NCBI GenBank assembly: GCA_937925855.1
Contig: CALAMO010000002.1
Span: 16,020-80,019 of the forward strand
DNA: 64,000 nucleotides
Direction: 5' to 3'
From: an uncultured Thiotrichaceae bacterium
GTDB taxonomy: Bacteria; Pseudomonadota; Gammaproteobacteria; Thiotrichales; Thiotrichaceae
Notes under the pieces: model-generated
The model's database searches: none
Told to the model about the DNA's origin: nothing
The model's input: the letters and a program-made list of their open reading frames with translations, nothing else
Position numbers and translations under genes: made by a program
Shown: positions 3,291-39,643 of the stretch, piece by piece
How the letters are laid out: each line of letters begins with the position of its first letter
How positions within the stretch are numbered: the stretch's first letter is position 1

Positions 3291-5747
<2,457 letters not shown>

Positions 5748-5771: not shown

Positions 5772-5814
5772 ACGGCACCTGTGTTTCACATGAAACGTAA
5801 GGTGCCGTTTTGTT
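5772..5814 (+). terminator. Probable gyrB intrinsic terminator
   Basis: Stem ACGGCACC (5772-5779) pairs with GGTGCCGT (5801-5808) and is followed by TTTTGTT. The loop itself contains the GTTTCACATGAAAC palindrome. Confidence 0.55.
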
Positions 5815-5832
5815 AAATGTTTCACATGAAAC
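5783..5832. repeat. Two direct copies of palindrome GTTTCACATGAAAC (5783-5796 and 5819-5832) upstream of prlC
   Basis: Read directly. The arms GTTTCA/TGAAAC are separated by 2 nt, and the copies sit 36 bp apart. Confidence 0.8.
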
Positions 5833-5849
5833 AATGAGCACAGTAAACC

Positions 5850-7952
5850 ATGAAGAAATCCCATTCTGGTGCAAATGAATCTGCGACCCAGGCTGCGGCA
5901 GTCAGCACCAATCCTTTATTGCAACAAGATGACCTGCCCTTATTCGCCCAAATCAAACCAGAGCACGTTGTCCCTGCCTTAGAACAGGTGTTAGTAGAAA
6001 ATCGAAGCTGGCTGGCTGAGCGCTTACAACAAACCGATCTAACGCCTAGCTGGGATAATTTGCTCTACCCGTTGGATGAGAAGAACAACTGGATGGAGCG
6101 CATGTGGTCGCCGGTTAGCCATATGAATGCGGTGGTAAACACTGGGGCAATGCGGGATGCTTATAACGGCTGTTTACCTAAACTCAGTGAGTATCAAACA
6201 GAAATCGGTCAAAACAGTCAGCTCTATCAAGCCGTCAAACACATCAGCCAGCAGTCAGAAAACCTCAATGCCGGGCAGCGTAAGGCGCTAGAAAACAGCC
6301 TACTATCGTTTCAGCTGAGTGGAATTGGTCTATCTGCGGTGGATAAGACCCGCTTTCGTGAAATTAGCCAGGAGCTGGCACAGTTAAGTGCCCGCTTCTC
6401 CGATAACGTATTGGATGCTAACAATGGCTGGTTCAAGCAGATTAGTGCTAAAGAGCATCTCAGTGGCTTGCCAGATTCTGCGTTAGGAATGGCACAGCAG
6501 GCCGCCGAGCAGCGCGAACTAGACGGTTGGGTTATTACGTTGGATTTCCCGAGTTACCTGAGCGTGATGCAGTACGCCGATAACCGGGAACTGCGGGCGG
6601 AGGTTTATCGGGCTTATACGACCCGTGCCTCAGATTTAGGCGCTGATCCTGCACAGGACAATAGCCAAGTGATGCGTGATATTTTGCGTCTGCGCCAGGA
6701 AAAAGCTGAGCTATTGGGCTACGCCAATTACGCGGAGGTGTCTCTGGCACGCAAGATGGCTGAGGATACGACTCAGGTCATTAGCTTTTTGCGTGATCTA
6801 GCCGTAAAGAGTAAGCCTGTGGCGGAGCGTGAGTTTGCAGAGGTCTCTGCATTTGCGGCGGAGCACTTAGCGATAGATGATACCCAGCCCTGGGATGTCA
6901 CTTATGTCAGCGAGAAGATGCGCCAGTCGCTATTTGACTTCAGTGCTGAAGACCTGAAACCCTACTTTCCTGTGGATCAGGTAATTGAGGGCTTATTCCA
7001 GCTAGTGAGCCGTCTGTATAAAGTCACTATTGAGCCTTCAGATAAGACCGTGGAGTTATGGCATCCTGACGTGAAGTTTTTTCGCATATTGGATCGCACA
7101 GGCACGCTTTGTGCGGAGTTTTATCTGGATCTGTATGCGCGCCAGCATAAGCGTGGTGGTGCCTGGATGAGCGATTACTGCGGGCGTTTTCAGCAGCGTC
7201 ATCAGCTACAGACGCCAGTGGCTTTTATGACCTGTAACGGCAGTCCGCCGGTCGGTGATCAGCCCGCCTTATTCACGCATGATGAAGTCGTTACCCTCTT
7301 CCATGAGTTTGGACATGGTTTGCATCACATGTTAACCCGCGTTGATTACCCTGATATTGCCGGTATCAGCGGTGTTGAATGGGACGCGGTCGAGTTGCCT
7401 AGCCAATTTATGGAAAACTGGTGTTGGGAGCGCGAAGTATTAGATCTGATTGGTGGTCATTGGCAAACTGGCGAGCCCTTACCCCAGGCATTGTTTGAGA
7501 AAATGCAGGCCGCGCGTCATTTCCAAAGTGCGATGGGCATGGTGCGCCAGCTAGAGTTTGCGCTGTTTGATATGCACCTGCATATTGATCCACAGGCGGC
7601 TTCGATCGGTCGTCTTGAGCACATTATGCAGGCCGTGCGTGATGAAGTTGCGGTGATAAAAGCACCGGACTTCAATCGAATGATGCATAGTTTTTCTCAT
7701 ATTTTTGCTGGGGGGTATGCGGCGGGCTATTACAGCTATAAGTGGGCGGAGGTGCTTTCAGCTGATGTTTATGCGCGTTTCGAGGAAGAAGGCTTGTTTA
7801 ATGAGCAGGTCGGCGAGTCATTTTTGACTGAGGTCTTGCAGGTCGGTAGCTCGCGTCCAGCCATGGATTCCTTTGTTGCTTTTCGCGGTCGAAAGCCAAA
7901 AATCGATGCTTTACTGCGCCACAGCGGGTTGGCAGAAGCGGAGATAACTTAA
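5850..7952 (+). CDS. prlC: Oligopeptidase A (M3 family zinc metallopeptidase)
   Basis: 700 aa. HEFGHGLHH zinc motif. Overall M3 architecture and length. Confidence 0.92.
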   Translation: MKKSHSGANESATQAAAVSTNPLLQQDDLPLFAQIKPEHVVPALEQVLVENRSWLAERLQQTDLTPSWDNLLYPLDEKNNWMERMWSPVSHMNAVVNTGAMRDAYNGCLPKLSEYQTEIGQNSQLYQAVKHISQQSENLNAGQRKALENSLLSFQLSGIGLSAVDKTRFREISQELAQLSARFSDNVLDANNGWFKQISAKEHLSGLPDSALGMAQQAAEQRELDGWVITLDFPSYLSVMQYADNRELRAEVYRAYTTRASDLGADPAQDNSQVMRDILRLRQEKAELLGYANYAEVSLARKMAEDTTQVISFLRDLAVKSKPVAEREFAEVSAFAAEHLAIDDTQPWDVTYVSEKMRQSLFDFSAEDLKPYFPVDQVIEGLFQLVSRLYKVTIEPSDKTVELWHPDVKFFRILDRTGTLCAEFYLDLYARQHKRGGAWMSDYCGRFQQRHQLQTPVAFMTCNGSPPVGDQPALFTHDEVVTLFHEFGHGLHHMLTRVDYPDIAGISGVEWDAVELPSQFMENWCWEREVLDLIGGHWQTGEPLPQALFEKMQAARHFQSAMGMVRQLEFALFDMHLHIDPQAASIGRLEHIMQAVRDEVAVIKAPDFNRMMHSFSHIFAGGYAAGYYSYKWAEVLSADVYARFEEEGLFNEQVGESFLTEVLQVGSSRPAMDSFVAFRGRKPKIDALLRHSGLAEAEIT

Positions 7953-29489: not shown

Positions 29490-30185
29490 TCATGGCTTTG
29501 CCTGTCTGGCGGCATCATGCCGTTCGAGTAAGGCGGTAAATTCCTCACGGAAATTATCATAATTCACCACCAGCCGATCAATATGATCATTAAAACGGTT
29601 ATAGGCGATGACCGCTGGAATAGCCGCAAACAAACCAATGGCAGTGGCGATTAGCGCTTCGGCGATACCCGGTGCAACTACGGCCAGCGTGGCTTGCTGC
29701 ATTTTGCCGAGTGAAATAAAGGAGTTCATAATACCCCACACGGTACCAAACAGCCCGACGTAAGGGCTGGTCGAACCCACCGTAGCTAAGAAGGCCAAAT
29801 TCTGTTCCAGGCCATCAACTTCTTTGGAGCTGGTAATGCGCATGGCGCGCTGCACGCCATCAATCCGGTTTAATTGGAAATTACTGGAAGTGCTGGCCTG
29901 CTTGAGGTCACGTTTGTATTCACGGAAGCCATCGTAAAAGATACGCTCCAGTCCATGATGATTGGGTTTCTCGCTTAATTCTGCATGGAGCGCAGACAGT
30001 GAAATACCGCTCCAGAAGCGGGTTTCAAAATGCTCTGCCTCGCGGCGTGATTTTTTTAATTTACCGGTTTTAACGATGATAAGCGCCCAGGACATTAATG
30101 AAGCCAGCACCAGCAGCCCCATCACAATTTGCACCACGAGGGAGGCATCACTAATCAATTCGAAAATGGAAAGGTCAGTTTTCAC
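29490..30185 (-). CDS. tolQ: Tol-Pal system protein TolQ
   Basis: 231 aa. MotA/TolQ/ExbB channel motifs (GLFGTVWGIMNSF, APGIAEALIATAIGL). Confidence 0.95.
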   Translation of the reverse strand: MKTDLSIFELISDASLVVQIVMGLLVLASLMSWALIIVKTGKLKKSRREAEHFETRFWSGISLSALHAELSEKPNHHGLERIFYDGFREYKRDLKQASTSSNFQLNRIDGVQRAMRITSSKEVDGLEQNLAFLATVGSTSPYVGLFGTVWGIMNSFISLGKMQQATLAVVAPGIAEALIATAIGLFAAIPAVIAYNRFNDHIDRLVVNYDNFREEFTALLERHDAARQAKP

Positions 30186-30645
30186 GATTTAACGCGCCTT
30201 TTATAACTAAAGGAATGGCTTTGGGCTTAAAACTTTGGGCATCGACACAGGCAACTTTGACCGTTGCAGTCGTTAAATGCTCACCCTCAACGTGTTGCTG
30301 TGGATCGTAGGATGAGTTGGAACGGCTATTGCAAAGGAGTCGATGAATGTCTTGCTGAAAAATAACGCTGGCCCCGGCTACTTTAACGGCTGAGGTAATG
30401 ACCTGGAGCCGATCATTAAAACGGGCCGCTTTGCGGTAGTCCAACTGTATACTGCGTACGACAAATAAAATACCCAGCTGCTTTTGTAACACATCTTGAT
30501 CATAGCCCAGCTCACGCAGTAATTCTGTACGCGCCCGCTCCATAAAGTTTAGGTAGTTGCTGTGATAGACTACACCGCCCGCATCAGTATCCTCATAATA
30601 CACGCGCAGCGGGAAGGTAAACGCATGAAACTCGTTATTTTTCAT
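30175..30645 (-). CDS. ybgC: Tol-Pal-associated acyl-CoA thioesterase YbgC (4HBT hotdog fold)
   Basis: RVYYEDTDAGGVVYHSNYLNFMERAR motif. I prefer the start at ATG 30645 (MKNNEF...); the ORF track start at 30681 is an alternative. Confidence 0.87.
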   Translation of the reverse strand: MKNNEFHAFTFPLRVYYEDTDAGGVVYHSNYLNFMERARTELLRELGYDQDVLQKQLGILFVVRSIQLDYRKAARFNDRLQVITSAVKVAGASVIFQQDIHRLLCNSRSNSSYDPQQHVEGEHLTTATVKVACVDAQSFKPKAIPLVIKGALNREN

Positions 30646-30708
30646 GGATGAAAGGATAGCAGAAGCCAAAGTCAGCCGCATAGCCCCTGCCCATAAGATT
30701 AAGGATTA

Positions 30709-31797
30709 TTAATTTCGGCGGGAGTGTGTGTCAAAGTCCAGTGGCAGCTGTTCTGGCAAGCCGGGTTGGGAAAATTGCACGCCCATGCCCAGTAGTCTAA
30801 CGGGGCGTTTACCCCTGGCCCAGGCCTGTTCAATCAGCGGCGGATAGCGTTCTTCCTTAACCACCGTGGAGGCGGTTTGTACCGTTGTGGTGACGAAATC
30901 GTGGAAGCGTAGTTTGATATAGAGTGTCTTCGGCAGCTGGTAGTGGCGCGCCTGTGCTTGATCAAGCCGTTTTTTCAGACTGAGGTAAAGTGCCGGTACC
31001 CGTTCCAGGCAGGCAGCCAAACTAGGCAAATCAGCGCTAAAAGTATCTTCTACGCTGATTGATTTACGGGTGTCGGAGGTGCTAACTGGGCGCGTGTCAT
31101 AGCCACGGGCGAGCTGGTACAGGCGTCCCCCAAACTTACCAAATTCCAGCTTCAAATCATTTTCAGGTAAACGCTGTAAATCGGCGCAAGTTTTTATGCC
31201 CAGCCGATCCATATGGGCTTCCGTCACTTTACCCACACCTGGAATCCGTTTAACCGGTAGCTCAGCAACAAAGGTCTCCACGTCCTGTGGTCGGATAACA
31301 AACAGGCCATTGGGTTTGCGCCAGTCGCTGGCAACTTTTGCTAAAAATTTATTGGGTGCGACGCCTGCGGAGGCTGTTAGCCGATGATTTTTCTGAATAC
31401 GTGTTCGGATTTCTTCGGCGATTAGCGTTGCACTCCCCTGTCGATGATGGGTGGTGCTAACGTCGAGAAAGGCCTCATCCAGCGATAAGGGTTCAACCAA
31501 GTCGGTATATTCAGTGAACATGGCTTGGATGTCGCTGGAGACTTCTTTATAAGCATCCATACGGCCGGGTACAACAATGAGGTGAGGACACTTGCGCAGC
31601 GCAATACCCATCGGCATGGCGGAGTGTACGCCGAACTGGCGCGCCTCATAGGAGCAGGTCGCCACTACTCCCCGGCCATCAGGAGAGCCACCGACAGCAA
31701 TCGGTTTACCCTGTAACTCAGGGTTATCGCGTGCTTCGACGGCGGCATAAAAGCAGTCCATGTCGATGTGGATAATTTTGCGGGCGTGCTTGTTCAT
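30709..31797 (-). CDS. dinB: DNA polymerase IV (Y-family translesion polymerase)
   Basis: KIIHIDMDCFYAAVE N-terminus, SLDEAFLDV motif, 362 aa. Confidence 0.95.
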   Translation of the reverse strand: MNKHARKIIHIDMDCFYAAVEARDNPELQGKPIAVGGSPDGRGVVATCSYEARQFGVHSAMPMGIALRKCPHLIVVPGRMDAYKEVSSDIQAMFTEYTDLVEPLSLDEAFLDVSTTHHRQGSATLIAEEIRTRIQKNHRLTASAGVAPNKFLAKVASDWRKPNGLFVIRPQDVETFVAELPVKRIPGVGKVTEAHMDRLGIKTCADLQRLPENDLKLEFGKFGGRLYQLARGYDTRPVSTSDTRKSISVEDTFSADLPSLAACLERVPALYLSLKKRLDQAQARHYQLPKTLYIKLRFHDFVTTTVQTASTVVKEERYPPLIEQAWARGKRPVRLLGMGVQFSQPGLPEQLPLDFDTHSRRN

Positions 31798-31842
31798 CTG
31801 GGCTAATCATATATGAACTCTCTGCTAATGCTAATGGCAGGC

Positions 31843-31955
31843 AAAAAAATACCCCCATCAAGGGGGGTATTCAATGTTGGACAACCCAAGAGGGTTGGTT
31901 GAGGATTCAGTATTTTTTGGAAATTAGCGTTTTACGCTTAAATTGCTTAGTGTGT
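31843..31955 (-). ncRNA. Candidate sRNA, unit 1 (~113 nt)
   Basis: On the minus strand, TATAAT lies at 31962-31967. The conserved 5' segment is CACACTAAGCAATTTAAGCGTAAAACGCTAATTTC. There are internal hairpins, then terminator ATACCCCC-loop-GGGGGTAT plus T7 (31843-31870). No ORF. Confidence 0.45.
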
Positions 31956-31988
31956 GGGTACATTATAAGTGGTCCTAAAAAATAGTTC

Positions 31989-32004
31989 TGTGAACTACGT
32001 CACA
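31989..32004 (-). promoter_or_regulatory. Consensus CRP box TGTGACGTAGTTCACA, centred ~-41.5 relative to the predicted start of sRNA unit 1
   Basis: Perfect TGTGA-N6-TCACA, exactly 21 nt upstream of the TATAAT hexamer. Confidence 0.5.
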
Positions 32005-32044
32005 CCAATCAAAACTTACGGTTAGGATCTACTGGTCACCGGGT

Positions 32045-32155
32045 AAAAAAAATGCCACCGCAAAGGGTGGCAAATTTAGCTGTCGTTGGACAACTTGAGA
32101 GAGATTTACAACAATTGTTAGAAATTAGCATTCATGCTTAACTTGCTTAGTGTGC
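32045..32155 (-). ncRNA. Candidate sRNA, unit 2 (~111 nt), a paralogue of unit 1
   Basis: On the minus strand, GATAGT lies at 32163-32168. The 5' segment is CACACTAAGCAAGTTAAGCATGAATGCTAATTTC. It shares GTTGTCCAAC with unit 1. The terminator is GCCACC-loop-GGTGGC plus AT8 (32045-32071). A half CRP box, TGTGACAAAAACACCT (32190-32205), sits at the same 21-nt spacing. Confidence 0.4.
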
Positions 32156-32380
32156 ACCGTCGACTATCCAGCATTTGAGTCTGGAATAGAGGTGTTTTTG
32201 TCACAGAAGCTATGTGAGATAATTACGTGTTGGCTAAAAAACAATCGATTTTGGTTTTGAGCAAGTCTCCGCGTTAACTTTAATATACTATTTCAACCCC
32301 TCATACCGTGCAGGTCGTCGCCTCGCATGCTTGTGAGACAATTTGTTATGCCTGTTACCGTTTTGTCGAGGATATGGTGT

Positions 32381-33361
32381 ATGCGGTTTACTAAACCTAA
32401 GGGCTTTACTGGCAGTGGCTTGCTCTTTCTGGGGTTACTGATGTCACTGCAGCCACTACTAGCGGACGATAAACTCAGCGTTTTTGTCAGTGTCCTGCCA
32501 CAGCAGCTGTTTGTGGAACGCATCGGTGGTGAGGCCGTGGCGGTTGAGGTGATGGTAAAGCCAGGTTTTAGTCCGGCGACGTATGAACCTTCGCCCCGTC
32601 AGATTGCTGCATTAGCTAAGACACAGCTCTATATTCGTATTGGCGTGCCGTTTGAAGCCGCATGGCTACCCCGTATTCGCAGTGTGAACCCAGACATGCT
32701 GCTGTTGGATGCGCGTGATAGCATTGAATTACTGAAACTCGATGACCGTCATCATGGGCATGAAGCACAGTATAATGATGAGCACTCGGCAGTGCAGCAC
32801 GCTGACATTGAGCATACTGAACATACCGGTGCTAAAAAGGTCGCTCATGTCGGGCAGAGGAGTGCGTTTGACCCCCACCTGTGGACAGACCCGCAGCGGG
32901 TTATCACGATGGCTCAGCAAATTAAGCGGCAGTTGACCGCGTTAGTGCCCGCACAGGCCGAGGTGTTCCAGGCAAACTATGTCGCTTTTGCGGCTGAGCT
33001 ACAGGCGCTTGATGACGAGCTGCGCGCGTTGTTTGCGCGGGATGACGCAGCGGATAATAAGAAATTCTTAGTGTTCCATCCTTCCTGGGGATATTTTGCG
33101 GCGACTTATGGTTTGACGCAGTTAGCGATTGAAGCAGAGGGTAAAGAACCCGGTGCAAAGGCGCTCCAAGCCTTAATTAGGCAGGCTAAAGCCGCAAGGG
33201 TGAAAACGATTTTTGTTCAACCGCAGTTTGATCAGCGTGCGGCCCGTCAGGTCGCCAAGGCGATTAAGGGTGAGGTGGTGGCGATCGATCCTTTGGCCGC
33301 TGATTATTTTGCTAATATGCGCCGCGCCGCCCGTCTAATCGCAGGAGTGGGCGATGAGTAG
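32381..33361 (+). CDS. znuA: Zinc ABC transporter substrate-binding protein (ZnuA-like, with a His/Asp/Glu-rich loop)
   Basis: Cluster-9 SBP fold motifs and the loop DDRHHGHEAQYNDEHSAVQHADIEHTEHTG. I prefer the start at ATG 32381 (GAGGA 9 nt upstream, followed by a signal peptide); the track start is 32327. Confidence 0.83.
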   Translation: MRFTKPKGFTGSGLLFLGLLMSLQPLLADDKLSVFVSVLPQQLFVERIGGEAVAVEVMVKPGFSPATYEPSPRQIAALAKTQLYIRIGVPFEAAWLPRIRSVNPDMLLLDARDSIELLKLDDRHHGHEAQYNDEHSAVQHADIEHTEHTGAKKVAHVGQRSAFDPHLWTDPQRVITMAQQIKRQLTALVPAQAEVFQANYVAFAAELQALDDELRALFARDDAADNKKFLVFHPSWGYFAATYGLTQLAIEAEGKEPGAKALQALIRQAKAARVKTIFVQPQFDQRAARQVAKAIKGEVVAIDPLAADYFANMRRAARLIAGVGDE

Positions 33362-36784: not shown

Positions 36785-39643
36785 TTACTTTCTTCTTAAG
36801 CTAAAGAGACTGGGTCTTGTTGCATAACTTAAGTTCAATGTTAATGCTGGGAAGGTATTAGCTCCCATTTTTAACAGTGCGGTAAATTTTTCTTTAAGTG
36901 CAGTAACTTCGTCAACATAGCTCTCTTGCATCAACTCACAGATCTCCTCATGTTTGTTTGCATAAAGAAATATGGGGGAAACAGGCTGCACGGCAAGCCC
37001 TTCCTGTTCTGCCAACAACCATAAATGTTGGACAGCTCGCCCACCATTAAGGTAGTCAGTGTCTGTCTGTCCAGTTGTGCCTACTACAACTGTAGCAGCA
37101 GCATTTCTAATCCTATCGCGGTTGTAATCCCCTAGTGCATAGCCTGCATCCCATTCTGCCAACTGTTCCATGACATCTTCGCGTTGAATGACAGACATTA
37201 CATTGAGGTCTTTGTTGTCCAGTCCTAACGTCCTGATGTCTATGCCTTCTTCAAGTGAGTCTTTGCCCGGCCAGCTTAATTCTGCCATCATTTCCTTGTG
37301 CAAATGACTGCAGAGGTAGCGTAAGCGCGCAGACTCAGCCAAAACTTCACCATATTCTTCTAGTTCATTTTCCTCTGTTAGCAGGTGTAAAGATACAGGG
37401 TGTTGAAATGCTAAAGCGTCCAACTTGGTTATAAATTCAGTAGATAAAGGCTTTCTGTTGCCTATTGCACGATTAGTTATACGGGACATTAAGAATTCAA
37501 ACAAACCAGCTATTGCTTGTTTTTTTGATGAGGTGTTTTGCTTTCTCTTTGTCCATATTGCTACCAGATCACTTTTTTTGGTATCAGTAGGAAAGAATGT
37601 CATGTTGCCTGATAGCTCGTAGTGAGCAGCTACTATTTCTGCATTAAAGCAAGCTGCCCCAATCGCTACCATTGAAGCACGCCAGTTTACATCCAGCGCC
37701 GAGGTGCGCTCTCTGTCAATTTCAAAGTGTAATTTATTATTTTCCCAGTAAATATTCCAAGGCTGAACGTTACCACCTGAGGGAGCAAACTTTGCTGCTA
37801 AAAGCATATCTGATTTTGCTTCACTACAAAAATCAGGCTTTTCTGGTAGAGGATCAATTGGTTTGGTCTTATGTGGAACCGTAGCTTCCTGTAAAATACT
37901 ATCCATATCGATTCTGGCACGACATGAAGGTGTGGGTTTGCCGATTCCAATTCTTCTTACTGCCGTTGCGATGATTGCTGCCCCCTGCGTCACATCAGAA
38001 GCAAGTTGCGGCCAAGTTTTTAGGGTGTTACCGATCTCTGTCATTGATGCAGCTAGACGAGTTGAAATTTTATCGCCTTCCACAATCCCGAGGCCATACC
38101 CAGCCTTGTCCTGATTAGATAGATCTTTCATTTCCTCAGCAGTTGCATCAACTAAACCATGAAATGGTTGCTGTTTATGATTTTGATCATAACGTTCAAT
38201 ATCAATCATTCCGAGATCACTAGTTGACATGAGAACGGGGATGCCATGTTTAGCTGCTGCTTCTCTGAGCTGCAATTTAATATCCAGCGAATCACATTCA
38301 TCAATAATTATATCAAGGCCATTAACAAAGTTTTCAATGTTATTTTTCTTAATGCCTTCTTCAAAAACATCAATTGTTATGTATGGATTGAGCTCTGCTA
38401 CACGACGTGCCGTGATCACAGCTTTGTTTAGGCCAATATCTAATAATGATGCAGGAACCCGGTTTAGGTTCGAGGTTTCGAGAACATCAAAGTCAGCTAG
38501 CTTTAAATGCCCACACAAACCTTCCATAGCGAGAGTATGGGCAATAGCGTGACCTGTACTTAATCCAGCAATGCCTATTCTGAGATTTAACAACTTTTCT
38601 TGTTCGTCAGCCGTAATTTTATTTTTATTTCGATTAGTGTGCAATTCTCTAAATTCAGAAGGCGCAAGAATTTTTAGTGCTGTTTTTCGCCATGGATAAA
38701 GTATCCAGCGGCTATTGTCTTTGTGATCGTAAGATTCATCTTTTTGATGCGTACTTTTCAGTTCTTTACACATGTCTTTTATATGTGAGATTTTTTTGTA
38801 ATCGCTATCCATTTGCATGGATTCAATTGGAATCATATGAAACGAATTCTTCTCGTCTAATATTATTGGTAAATATATACTCTGATTGTTATTAATTTCT
38901 ATTATCCGATTTTGATGGATAATTGGCCACTCTCTTCCAAGTAAGGTAAGATTCCTATCATGAGCGCGATCAGTAATTGTCTGCATGTCAAAAAATCCAC
39001 AGCTTGTCTTAAATGAATCATTGGGATAGGGCACACAACCAATATTATCTAATTCATGCATACCTAATTCAGCATAGGTTTTTTTCATATTTTGTGGAAA
39101 CGAATAAATTAAATAACGAGCCTCCATAATTAAAGCTCCATAGACTGCGGCTCTTGCCATAAGTCCAAGTGCTACCTTCCGAGTTGAGTGCGTGGACTGA
39201 ACCCATACTCCTTTAGGTTCAATGACTTTTTCGGGTATCCACGACTTAATGTACTTTTTCAAAAGCGTGCTGTTTCCCGCTTCCATTTCATGAATGATGA
39301 AGGAATCATCTGGTTTTGCTATGGGCTGATGGAGTCTAACACCAGCAACAACATCGCCATCAGCAATCGCTAACATAGCTAAGGGTACACAACCTGGTGA
39401 CTCTAGTGCCTTTAGATCAAGTACCGAGCTGGCTCCAATTCGAGTGTATTCTCTGGTTAAGCCTTCTACATACTTCAGCCACATATATGGATAATCAGAC
39501 GGATTGAATATGAATAGCTTTATTTCTTGATGTGTTGGCAACTTAACTTCGATATAATCGTGCTTAAATGATTGATATTGATGAGAGTTGGATAAAAACA
39601 AAACATTACTAGTCAATAAATTTTTGTTTGAACTGAGACCCAT
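36785..39643 (-). CDS. Three-module protein: unknown N-terminal domain (possibly GNAT-like), ThiF/E1-like adenylyltransferase, and nitroreductase-like domain (Rv1355c-type core)
   Basis: Start ATG 39643 with GGAG 6 nt upstream. Rossmann motif RIGIAGLSTGHAIAHTLAMEG...LADFDVLETSNLNRV lies at aa ~365-410. The nitroreductase-type motif APSGGNVQPW begins the C-terminal ~320 aa. The gene is strongly AT-rich. Confidence 0.85.
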   Translation of the reverse strand: MGLSSNKNLLTSNVLFLSNSHQYQSFKHDYIEVKLPTHQEIKLFIFNPSDYPYMWLKYVEGLTREYTRIGASSVLDLKALESPGCVPLAMLAIADGDVVAGVRLHQPIAKPDDSFIIHEMEAGNSTLLKKYIKSWIPEKVIEPKGVWVQSTHSTRKVALGLMARAAVYGALIMEARYLIYSFPQNMKKTYAELGMHELDNIGCVPYPNDSFKTSCGFFDMQTITDRAHDRNLTLLGREWPIIHQNRIIEINNNQSIYLPIILDEKNSFHMIPIESMQMDSDYKKISHIKDMCKELKSTHQKDESYDHKDNSRWILYPWRKTALKILAPSEFRELHTNRNKNKITADEQEKLLNLRIGIAGLSTGHAIAHTLAMEGLCGHLKLADFDVLETSNLNRVPASLLDIGLNKAVITARRVAELNPYITIDVFEEGIKKNNIENFVNGLDIIIDECDSLDIKLQLREAAAKHGIPVLMSTSDLGMIDIERYDQNHKQQPFHGLVDATAEEMKDLSNQDKAGYGLGIVEGDKISTRLAASMTEIGNTLKTWPQLASDVTQGAAIIATAVRRIGIGKPTPSCRARIDMDSILQEATVPHKTKPIDPLPEKPDFCSEAKSDMLLAAKFAPSGGNVQPWNIYWENNKLHFEIDRERTSALDVNWRASMVAIGAACFNAEIVAAHYELSGNMTFFPTDTKKSDLVAIWTKRKQNTSSKKQAIAGLFEFLMSRITNRAIGNRKPLSTEFITKLDALAFQHPVSLHLLTEENELEEYGEVLAESARLRYLCSHLHKEMMAELSWPGKDSLEEGIDIRTLGLDNKDLNVMSVIQREDVMEQLAEWDAGYALGDYNRDRIRNAAATVVVGTTGQTDTDYLNGGRAVQHLWLLAEQEGLAVQPVSPIFLYANKHEEICELMQESYVDEVTALKEKFTALLKMGANTFPALTLNLSYATRPSLFSLRRK

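Follow-up and report, generated by a model that had tools for sequence, protein, structure and literature searches.

Two Putative Paralogous Genes of a Candidate Small RNA Family with CRP-Type Promoter Sites Upstream of dinB in an Uncultured Thiotrichaceae Bacterium

CyaR carries a C/U-rich unpaired motif that pairs with Shine-Dalgarno regions, for example that of ompX; the shared 5' end of OmrA/B acts as the seed; and Spot 42 is repressed, not activated, by CRP. CyaR is a CRP-activated small RNA (sRNA) (PMC5861431). In the literature that we searched, no regulatory RNA is described for filamentous sulfur bacteria of the Thiothrix/Thiolinea type, and nothing relevant was found on a Thiothrix sRNA or a Thiothrix CRP. 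We analyzed a 64-kb stretch of DNA (the window) from an uncultured Thiotrichaceae bacterium (assembly GCA_937925855.1, contig CALAMO010000002.1, positions 16,020 to 80,019), in which the 529-bp spacer between dinB and a ZnuA-family gene holds two homologous units on its minus strand. We consider it fairly probable that these units are paralogous genes for independently transcribed sRNAs of a family not described before, which probably act in trans, with a class II CRP-type site in the promoter.

The predicted RNA of unit 1, the downstream paralogue or B type, spans positions 31843-31955 on the minus strand (about 113 nt), and a covariance model built from the family matches it at 31843-31954 with 96.8 bits. 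That of unit 2, the upstream paralogue or A type, spans positions 32045-32155 on the same strand (about 111 nt; model match at 32046-32154, 84.7 bits). The units have 76% identity across the 188 columns of their pairwise alignment, the direct repeats between them are offset by 200-209 bp, and the 19-nt 5' segment CACACTAAGCAA(T/G)TTAAGC occurs twice, against 0.05 occurrences expected by chance. Each unit ends in an intrinsic terminator, with a 10-bp stem and a U7 run in unit 1 (31847-31872, minus strand) and a GCCACC/GGUGGC stem and a U8 run in unit 2 (32053-32072, minus strand); of the two strands, only the minus strand has terminators. Folding of the two predicted RNAs was better than that of shuffled controls (z = -3.7 for unit 1 and -2.7 for unit 2). 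The first-pass annotation of this DNA had described two homologous minus-strand units in tandem, and the identity, the offsets and the match of both units to one covariance model bear this description out. Its coordinates for the boxes, -10 hexamers, spacing and terminators also proved right at every one that we checked.

To place the units among their relatives, we retrieved the DNA around DinB homologues, so that most loci were found through DinB; the closest DinB proteins came from Thiolinea and Thiothrix metagenome-assembled genomes. The family has 10 members, which are spread over 8 distinct loci and always lie just upstream of dinB; eight of them are outside the window. A second tandem pair is present in locus L029, whose DinB is 87% identical to that of the window, and single copies are found in L001/L007 (85%), L009 (83%), L014 (75%) and L010-L013 (74%). 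The copy in L004 (72%) has a shortened 5' part and adjoins an insertion sequence (IS)-like remnant. Conservation in relatives, which had been named as a check of the feature, is thus evident from the homologous units upstream of dinB and from the pair in L029. The divergent ZnuA-family operon is present wherever that flank was recovered (window, L001/L007, L004 and L010-L014); it is not seen in L009, L028 and L029, which are short contigs. A dinB gene without the element occurs in L008 (89% identity, with a different upstream gene), in L002 (73%, with a 69-bp spacer) and in all loci at or below 68% identity. The covariance model built from the 10 copies matches exactly those copies, with 74-104 bits, and nothing beyond them in the roughly 190 kb searched. 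A scan of a genome collection with CACACTAAGCAA-N40-70-GTTGTCCAA gave three matches, of which only L007 (Thiolinea sp.) is real, those in Woeseia and Ferrovum being due to chance. Only L028 is real among the 10 matches of a metagenome scan with ATCCTCAA..CTCT..GTTGTCCAA, and a scan of viral contigs gave one chance match and no true family member. The family is real, rare and phylogenetically narrow, and it appears to be confined to a narrow Thiolinea-like clade of the Thiotrichaceae. At about 3100-3800 of L004, a degenerate transposase remnant, which we take from its protein motif to be IS1595/ISXO2-like, stands between the ZnuA-family gene and the sRNA unit in place of the usual promoter region, and the L004 copy with its shortened 5' part may be inactive.

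The two units also share the layout of their predicted promoters. The -10 hexamer of unit 1 is TATAAT (31962-31967, minus strand), with no usable -35, and that of unit 2 is GATAGT (32163-32168, minus strand); CACAC begins 7 or 8 nt past the hexamer in units 1 and 2. The unit 1 box, TGTGACGTAGTTCACA (31989-32004, minus strand), is a perfect CRP-type palindrome. Its centre at 31996.5 lies at -41.5 from the predicted start at 31955, and it is the only TGTGA-N6-TCACA site without a mismatch in the window. The box of unit 2, TGTGACAAAAACACCT (32190-32205, minus strand), has a good left half-site and a poor right half. Each box lies exactly 21 nt from its -10. A second conserved element, CGTAATTATCTCACA (32213-32227, minus strand; family consensus yGTrm-N5-TCACA), is centred near -64.

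This geometry recurs in the homologues. A -10 hexamer is predicted 7-8 nt ahead of the conserved CACAC in all eight promoters, and the whole layout of TGTGA-N11, 21 nt, -10, 7-8 nt and CACAC is kept in seven of the eight, while the sequence of the spacer is not conserved. The orthologous box in L029, TGTGAAATAGTTCACA, is likewise a perfect palindrome, with another N6 and the same geometry as in unit 1, and apart from these two unit-1-type promoters (window and L029b), the 128 kb of related DNA hold no perfect TGTGA-N6-TCACA site. A TGTGA half-site at the matching offset is common to unit 2, L001, L009, L010 and L014; these single-copy promoters and unit 2 keep TGTGA(C/A), usually with ..ACA on the right, and in all five the TCACA of the second element lies exactly 7 nt upstream of the TGTGA. 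Judged as class II sites, the boxes are therefore perfect in unit 1 and L029b and consist of a TGTGA half plus ..ACA in the other five, and the position near -41.5, which rests on the predicted start, follows from the 21-nt spacer to the -10 in seven of eight promoters. In L029a, a 22-bp deletion took out the box, and the second element now lies 22 nt from the -10. None of the promoters has a usable -35, and a sigma-70 scan that requires both hexamers makes no call; at the unit 1 promoter this is expected, because the promoter would depend on an activator. TTCACA was considered as a -35 and rejected, since it matches at five of six positions but is too far from the -10 at 21 nt. The earlier proposals of a perfect CRP consensus at about -41.5 in unit 1, and of an identical distance from box to -10 in both units, are well supported by these results. 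For unit 2, the TGTGA half-site at the same spacing was recovered, but the case for dependence on an activator is weaker because L029a, the orthologous promoter, has lost the box by deletion.

The predicted RNA of unit 1 consists, in order, of an unstructured 5' tail with a small hairpin, the segment AUCCUCAA, stem-loop 2, a UCCAAC linker and the terminator. AUCCUCAA (31899-31906, minus strand) is a conserved unpaired segment resembling an anti-Shine-Dalgarno sequence. It is present in 8 of the 10 homologues, and its mean unpaired probability is 0.8-0.98 in seven of the 8 carriers and 0.56 in the shortened L004 copy. Stem-loop 2 (CAACCC-UCUU-GGGUUG; 31882-31897, minus strand) has a stem that is kept in the homologues, its equivalent in the seven other B-type and single-copy RNAs being CAGCUC/GAGUUG or CGACUC/GAGUUG. 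The core GUUGUCCAAC lies at 31876-31885 in unit 1, where stem-loop 2 takes its 3' arm from GUUG and UCCAAC stays unpaired, and, according to the direct repeat and the homologue alignment, at 32085-32094 in unit 2 (both minus strand). Across all 10 copies, GUUGUCCAA is the only invariant block, and both GUUGUCCAA and AUCCUCAA are mostly unpaired in the predicted folds, which are consistent across homologues.

The eight B-type and single-copy RNAs share AUCCUCAA, stem-loop 2 (CAGCUC - C/U-rich loop - GAGUUG), the UCCAAC linker and the terminator, and their 5' region of 20-55 nt is A/U-rich and largely unpaired. AUCCUCAA and the C/U-rich loop are thus kept in every copy other than the two upstream-type paralogues. 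These two, unit 2 and L029a, are without AUCCUCAA and the 5' arm of stem-loop 2; their GUUGUC pairs downstream instead, and CCAAC is left in a loop. Unit 2 keeps the 5' end of unit 1 and GUUGUCCAAC. All ten homologues end in a G+C-rich hairpin followed by a run of U6-8, and the stems covary. In the model-based alignment, two pairs of the terminator and one of stem-loop 2 (U-A to C-G) show compensatory changes, and 91.5% of the stem cells can pair, compared with 32-42% when the partners are slid. In the closest relatives, the small 5' hairpin shows a further compensatory change, from G-C to A-U, between unit 1 and unit 2. The first-pass annotation regarded the conserved 5' end as the seed. The window, L029 and L001 do share a conserved 5' segment, CACACUAAGCAAG; in L009, L010, L014 and L028, however, this segment drifts, and the invariant block of the family is GUUGUCCAA instead. 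Because it is conserved solely in the closest relatives, the 5' end is only one of the seed candidates, and it is a plausible one in the sub-clade of the window, L029 and L001.

Selection on the locus can be judged from L029, where two genes stand in the same order as in the window and the whole region aligns collinearly. As a neutral benchmark we used the 4-fold degenerate sites of dinB, the inter-unit spacer and the unit 1 promoter spacer, which are 37%, 38% and 43% identical between the window and L029 and are essentially saturated. Against this background, the identity is 83-85% in the 5' parts of the RNAs, 88% in the middle of unit 1 and 75-80% in stem-loop 2 and the core, and the RNA of unit 1 is 80-88% identical to its orthologue L029b. 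The unit 1 box is 88% identical (14/16), and both differences fall inside the N6. The conservation of the RNAs and the box over saturated neutral sites indicates that the duplication is old and that purifying selection has maintained the box as well as both copies.

A coding function is excluded by the lengths of the loops and by the lack of a shared open reading frame (ORF). An ORF survey of the window and the homologue alignment revealed no conserved ORF in the spacer, in agreement with the earlier statement that it holds no convincing one, and the indels of the homologues shift every frame. Loop lengths are 3, 3, 4, 4, 5, 6 and 6 nt among the homologues, and the indels in loops and linkers are not multiples of three. 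The sole ORF of at least 30 amino acids inside a unit (32036-32131, 31 amino acids) extends across the terminator, and unit 1 has nothing that corresponds to it. The reading as a small-protein gene was rejected, the 5-amino-acid and 31-amino-acid ORFs being found in unit 2 only.

Based on these features, a mechanism can be proposed whose parts differ in strength. Each gene would form its own transcription unit, with a reasonable -10, no -35 and a start at or next to CACAC, and transcription would end at the Rho-independent terminator about 110 nt past the start; we regard it as highly probable that the units are independent sRNA genes. Upstream, a site for an activator of the CRP/FNR family is predicted, with the TGTGA half-site 37 nt before the -10 and the site centred at -41.5. 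Class II activation by a CRP/Vfr-type regulator is a likely reading, and most convincing for unit 1, which with its perfect palindrome would most likely be switched on by such a regulator. Since unit 2 has only a half-site plus the second upstream TCACA element, its response would probably be weaker or would combine two inputs. It is fairly likely that the RNAs act in trans, by base pairing through their unpaired conserved segments, and probably with Hfq on the U-tail. Both RNAs could pair through UCCAAC, within the invariant GUUGUCCAAC, and through the 5' CACACUAAGCAAG that they share; unit 1 would add the anti-Shine-Dalgarno-like AUCCUCAA and the C/U-rich loop. The CCUC/CUCUCU content of these segments makes the ribosome-binding regions of mRNAs the likely targets. 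Transcription, the identity of the activator and its cyclic AMP (cAMP) signal, the dependence on Hfq, the action in trans and the targets are all features that we infer from sequence.

Several results weigh against this proposal. A tblastn search with E. coli CRP and FNR, and a search for hfq, yielded no homologue of crp, fnr or hfq from the window and the fetched loci, which together comprise about 190 kb and are a small part of a genome. The window shows no enrichment of CRP-like sites, with 28 at up to 2 mismatches compared with 24.4 expected, and in 128 kb of related DNA, a small sample, there are 5 sites with up to 1 mismatch compared with about 3.8 expected, so that there is no independent sign of a CRP regulon. 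The box of unit 2 is a half-site and is deleted in L029a, and the covariation of stem-loop 2 consists of a single compensatory pair among 10 related sequences. All copies stand directly upstream of dinB on the same strand, an arrangement that would also be compatible with a role in cis. Finally, a complement search and duplex folding gave no convincing target in the window. The 12-mer near-matches to complements of the conserved segments, at 37027 and 59879, were rejected, being antisense to a gene or located far within one. When RNAduplex was applied to the start regions of the znuA-family gene and dinB, the energies were within background and no pairing was conserved across loci.

The adjacency to dinB is the basis of one alternative, in which the units are cis-acting leaders or attenuators of dinB, or an upstream activator-dependent promoter for it, and the tandem pair forms two successive checkpoints. 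Transcription from the CRP-type promoter would then stop at the hairpin or read into dinB, and the "sRNA" would be a by-product or a regulated leader. This would suit the position of every copy, and in L001 the U-run of the terminator ends about 24 nt before the dinB ATG, overlapping the place where a dinB -35 would lie. However, the terminators are strong, with G+C-rich stems of 7-10 bp and runs of U7-8, and there is no conserved antiterminator pairing: the arms vary (GCCACC, CCGCC and CCCCC), whereas the conserved segments upstream of them are fixed. In several loci dinB has a -10-like TATGAT of its own a few nucleotides before the ATG, relatives such as L008, L002 and L015-L018 have dinB without the element, and in L029 the terminator is about 170 nt away from dinB. 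Moreover, the adjacency is partly an ascertainment effect, because most loci were found through DinB. We consider this reading to be unlikely. Still less probable, in our judgement, is a functional coupling of the CRP-type promoters and the short RNAs to dinB, in which a starvation-type signal at the CRP box would gate dinB in cis while the released RNAs act in trans. Such coupling could work through promoter occlusion or through terminator read-through that gives a leadered dinB mRNA, and, if true, it would link nutrient status directly to mutagenic DNA synthesis in the Thiolinea-like clade.

It is also conceivable that the units are independent sRNA genes but that their activator is not cAMP-CRP; it would instead be another regulator of the CRP/FNR family, or an unrelated factor recognizing TCACA-N7-TGTGA, which responds to a different signal, possibly a metal-related one shared with the divergent ZnuA-family operon. 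Five of the eight promoters have only the TGTGA half-site with TCACA exactly 7 nt upstream, which can equally be read as an everted repeat TCACA-N7-TGTGA, and the spacing of the upstream element is N5 rather than N6. The conserved regulatory region that is shared with the metal transporter operon, and the lack of both a CRP gene in the window and fetched loci (~190 kb) and a regulon signal, are in line with this idea. Yet the two unit-1-type promoters carry a perfect TGTGA-N6-TCACA, the site lies at exactly -41.5 in the textbook class II arrangement of CRP, and its right half, AGTTCACA, fits the extended CRP/Vfr consensus. This consensus is AG(A/T)TCACA. On balance, an activator other than cAMP-CRP appears rather improbable. 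The least probable of all is that the repeats have no RNA function and are a duplicated promoter/terminator remnant, a relic of a mobile element or a small-protein gene. There are only two copies in the window, the family is rare, with one true match each in the genome and metagenome scans, and an IS-like remnant adjoins the L004 copy. Nevertheless, conservation over the saturated neutral background is strong and specific to certain regions, and two genomes have retained the pair. Terminal inverted repeats are absent from the copies, which are not dispersed either; no ORF is conserved, indels shift every frame, and the viral contigs hold no true match.

The genes beside the units serve as context only. 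Directly downstream of unit 1 and on the same strand lies dinB, encoding DNA polymerase IV (30709-31797, minus strand; NF002677, E = 3.9e-150). The gene divergent from unit 2 encodes a metal ABC transporter binding protein of the ZnuA family (32327-33361, plus strand; PF01297, as recorded for the orthologues). The upstream neighbour had been named znuA; membership in the ZnuA family (PF01297) was upheld, but the name is loose, as the score is under the ZnuA and AztC cut-offs. A sigma-70 scan gives dinB a promoter-like site of its own, TTAGCA-17-TATGAT, at 31834-31806. In several relatives a -10-like TATGAT (TACCAT in L010) stands just 6-8 nt before the dinB start codon; it is found at 31806-31811 in the window (ATG at 31797), at about 3989-4001 in both L001 and L004, at about 706-718 in L009 and at about 2989-3001 in L010. 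No Shine-Dalgarno sequence was seen between this hexamer and the start codon in the window and several relatives. This arrangement suggests that the dinB mRNA may be leaderless or nearly so and that the putative dinB promoter is packed against the sRNA terminator. On the same strand, dinB is followed by ybgC (30175-30681) after a gap of only 27 nt, and then by tolQ (29490-30185), which suggests that dinB is co-transcribed with the tol-pal cluster in the window; in relatives, other genes lie downstream of dinB. In L029, a vestigial dinB promoter with the first codons, TTATGAT-N8-ATGAATAAGCCCGC, is found at about 565-674, roughly 100 nt upstream of the called dinB start, its counterpart in the window being TATGAT-N8-ATGAACAAGCACGC. 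After the vestigial start comes an insertion of roughly 95 nt; the 5' end of dinB has been remodelled in the L029 genome.

A conserved block, TCGATTGTTTTTTAGCCAA (32230-32248, minus strand), whose family form is TTGATTGTTTTTTAACCAA, lies in the region flanked by the sRNA promoter on one side and the divergent promoter of the metal transporter on the other. A block of this type is conserved in the window, L029, L001, L010 and L014, and at 32213-32248 of the window and in the equivalents in L001, L010, L014 and L029 it is followed by yGTrm-N5-TCACA. In L029 the first part of the block is a perfect inverted repeat, TTGGTT-N7-AACCAA. Block and element together may serve one or the other promoter as an operator or UP-like element. 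On the plus strand, a motif upstream of the metal-transporter gene (32270-32300) has the sequence AACTTTAATATACTATTTC in the window and, in relatives, TTTAAGATACTATCTC or TTTGCGATAAGATCAC; it is conserved in L001, L004, L010 and L014 and holds a short palindrome of the GATA...ATC type. It is probably the -10 region of the metal-transporter operon, an operator for a metal regulator, or both. Far from the locus, two copies of GTTTCACATGAAAC (arms GTTTCA/TGAAAC) lie at about 5773-5786 and 5821-5834, 48 nt apart from start to start, in the 100-bp spacer between an ORF of 804 amino acids (3333-5747) and one of 700 amino acids (5850-7952), the N-terminus of the latter presumably resembling oligopeptidase A. 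These copies may be a paired operator, and the second of them accounts for a CRP-like match with 1 mismatch at 5811.

Bacteria of the Thiothrix/Thiolinea type matter in wastewater bulking and in sulfidic habitats. For them, the locus is a well-delimited candidate that combines a conserved sRNA family, a predicted activator site and a pair of genes whose promoters and RNA architecture have diverged. Should control of the CRP type prove true, the motif of the CRP-activated sRNA, as in CyaR and similar RNAs, would reach a distant gammaproteobacterial lineage, and the locus would offer a handle on carbon-status regulation in this lineage of the Thiotrichaceae. General concepts would remain unchanged, as sRNAs in tandem paralogous pairs are well known, and so are sRNAs that depend on CRP.

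Comparison with known RNAs agrees with the first-pass annotation, which had recognized no known family: none of the copies matches an Rfam family. In a search of the window and 7 homologous loci against Rfam 15 there were 0 matches at the gathering score, to CyaR, Spot 42, OmrA-B, PrrF, RyhB or any other family, and at E <= 10 the best sub-threshold scores were 15-23 bits, most of those shown just covering the terminator hairpin. The units are none of CyaR, OmrA/OmrB and PrrF1/PrrF2, although they resemble each of these in part. With CyaR (RyeE), the cAMP-CRP-activated, Hfq-binding sRNA of the Enterobacterales, they share a length of roughly 90-110 nt, a predicted CRP-type promoter of their own and an intrinsic terminator, and the AUCCUCAA segment and the CUCUCU loop would suit its mode of pairing. 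Unlike CyaR, to which they have no match in sequence or structure at E <= 10, the units occur in the Thiotrichaceae and as a tandem pair. Spot 42 (spf) is similar in its length of about 110 nt, its CRP-type control and its unstructured pairing regions; the units differ from it in their proposed activation, as against its repression, by a CRP-type regulator, and they have no Rfam match. At the level of the promoter, the TGTGA-N6-TCACA at -41.5 in place of a -35, together with a good -10, corresponds to class II CRP-dependent promoters such as galP1. However, most members of the family keep only the promoter-distal half-site and the second element near -64, a position that is standard for neither class I nor class III. 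The organization of the pair is like that of OmrA/OmrB of E. coli and PrrF1/PrrF2 of Pseudomonas, namely, adjacent paralogues on the same strand, each with a promoter and a terminator, with conserved ends around a divergent middle and with both copies retained across species. These RNAs, to which the units have no Rfam match at E <= 10, are regulated by OmpR and Fur, respectively. A further difference is that the promoters of the units have diverged, into a perfect palindrome in one and a half-site with an extra element in the other, and that the central hairpin of the upstream paralogue has been re-wired. The family looks previously undescribed, but otherwise like an ordinary type of bacterial regulatory RNA.

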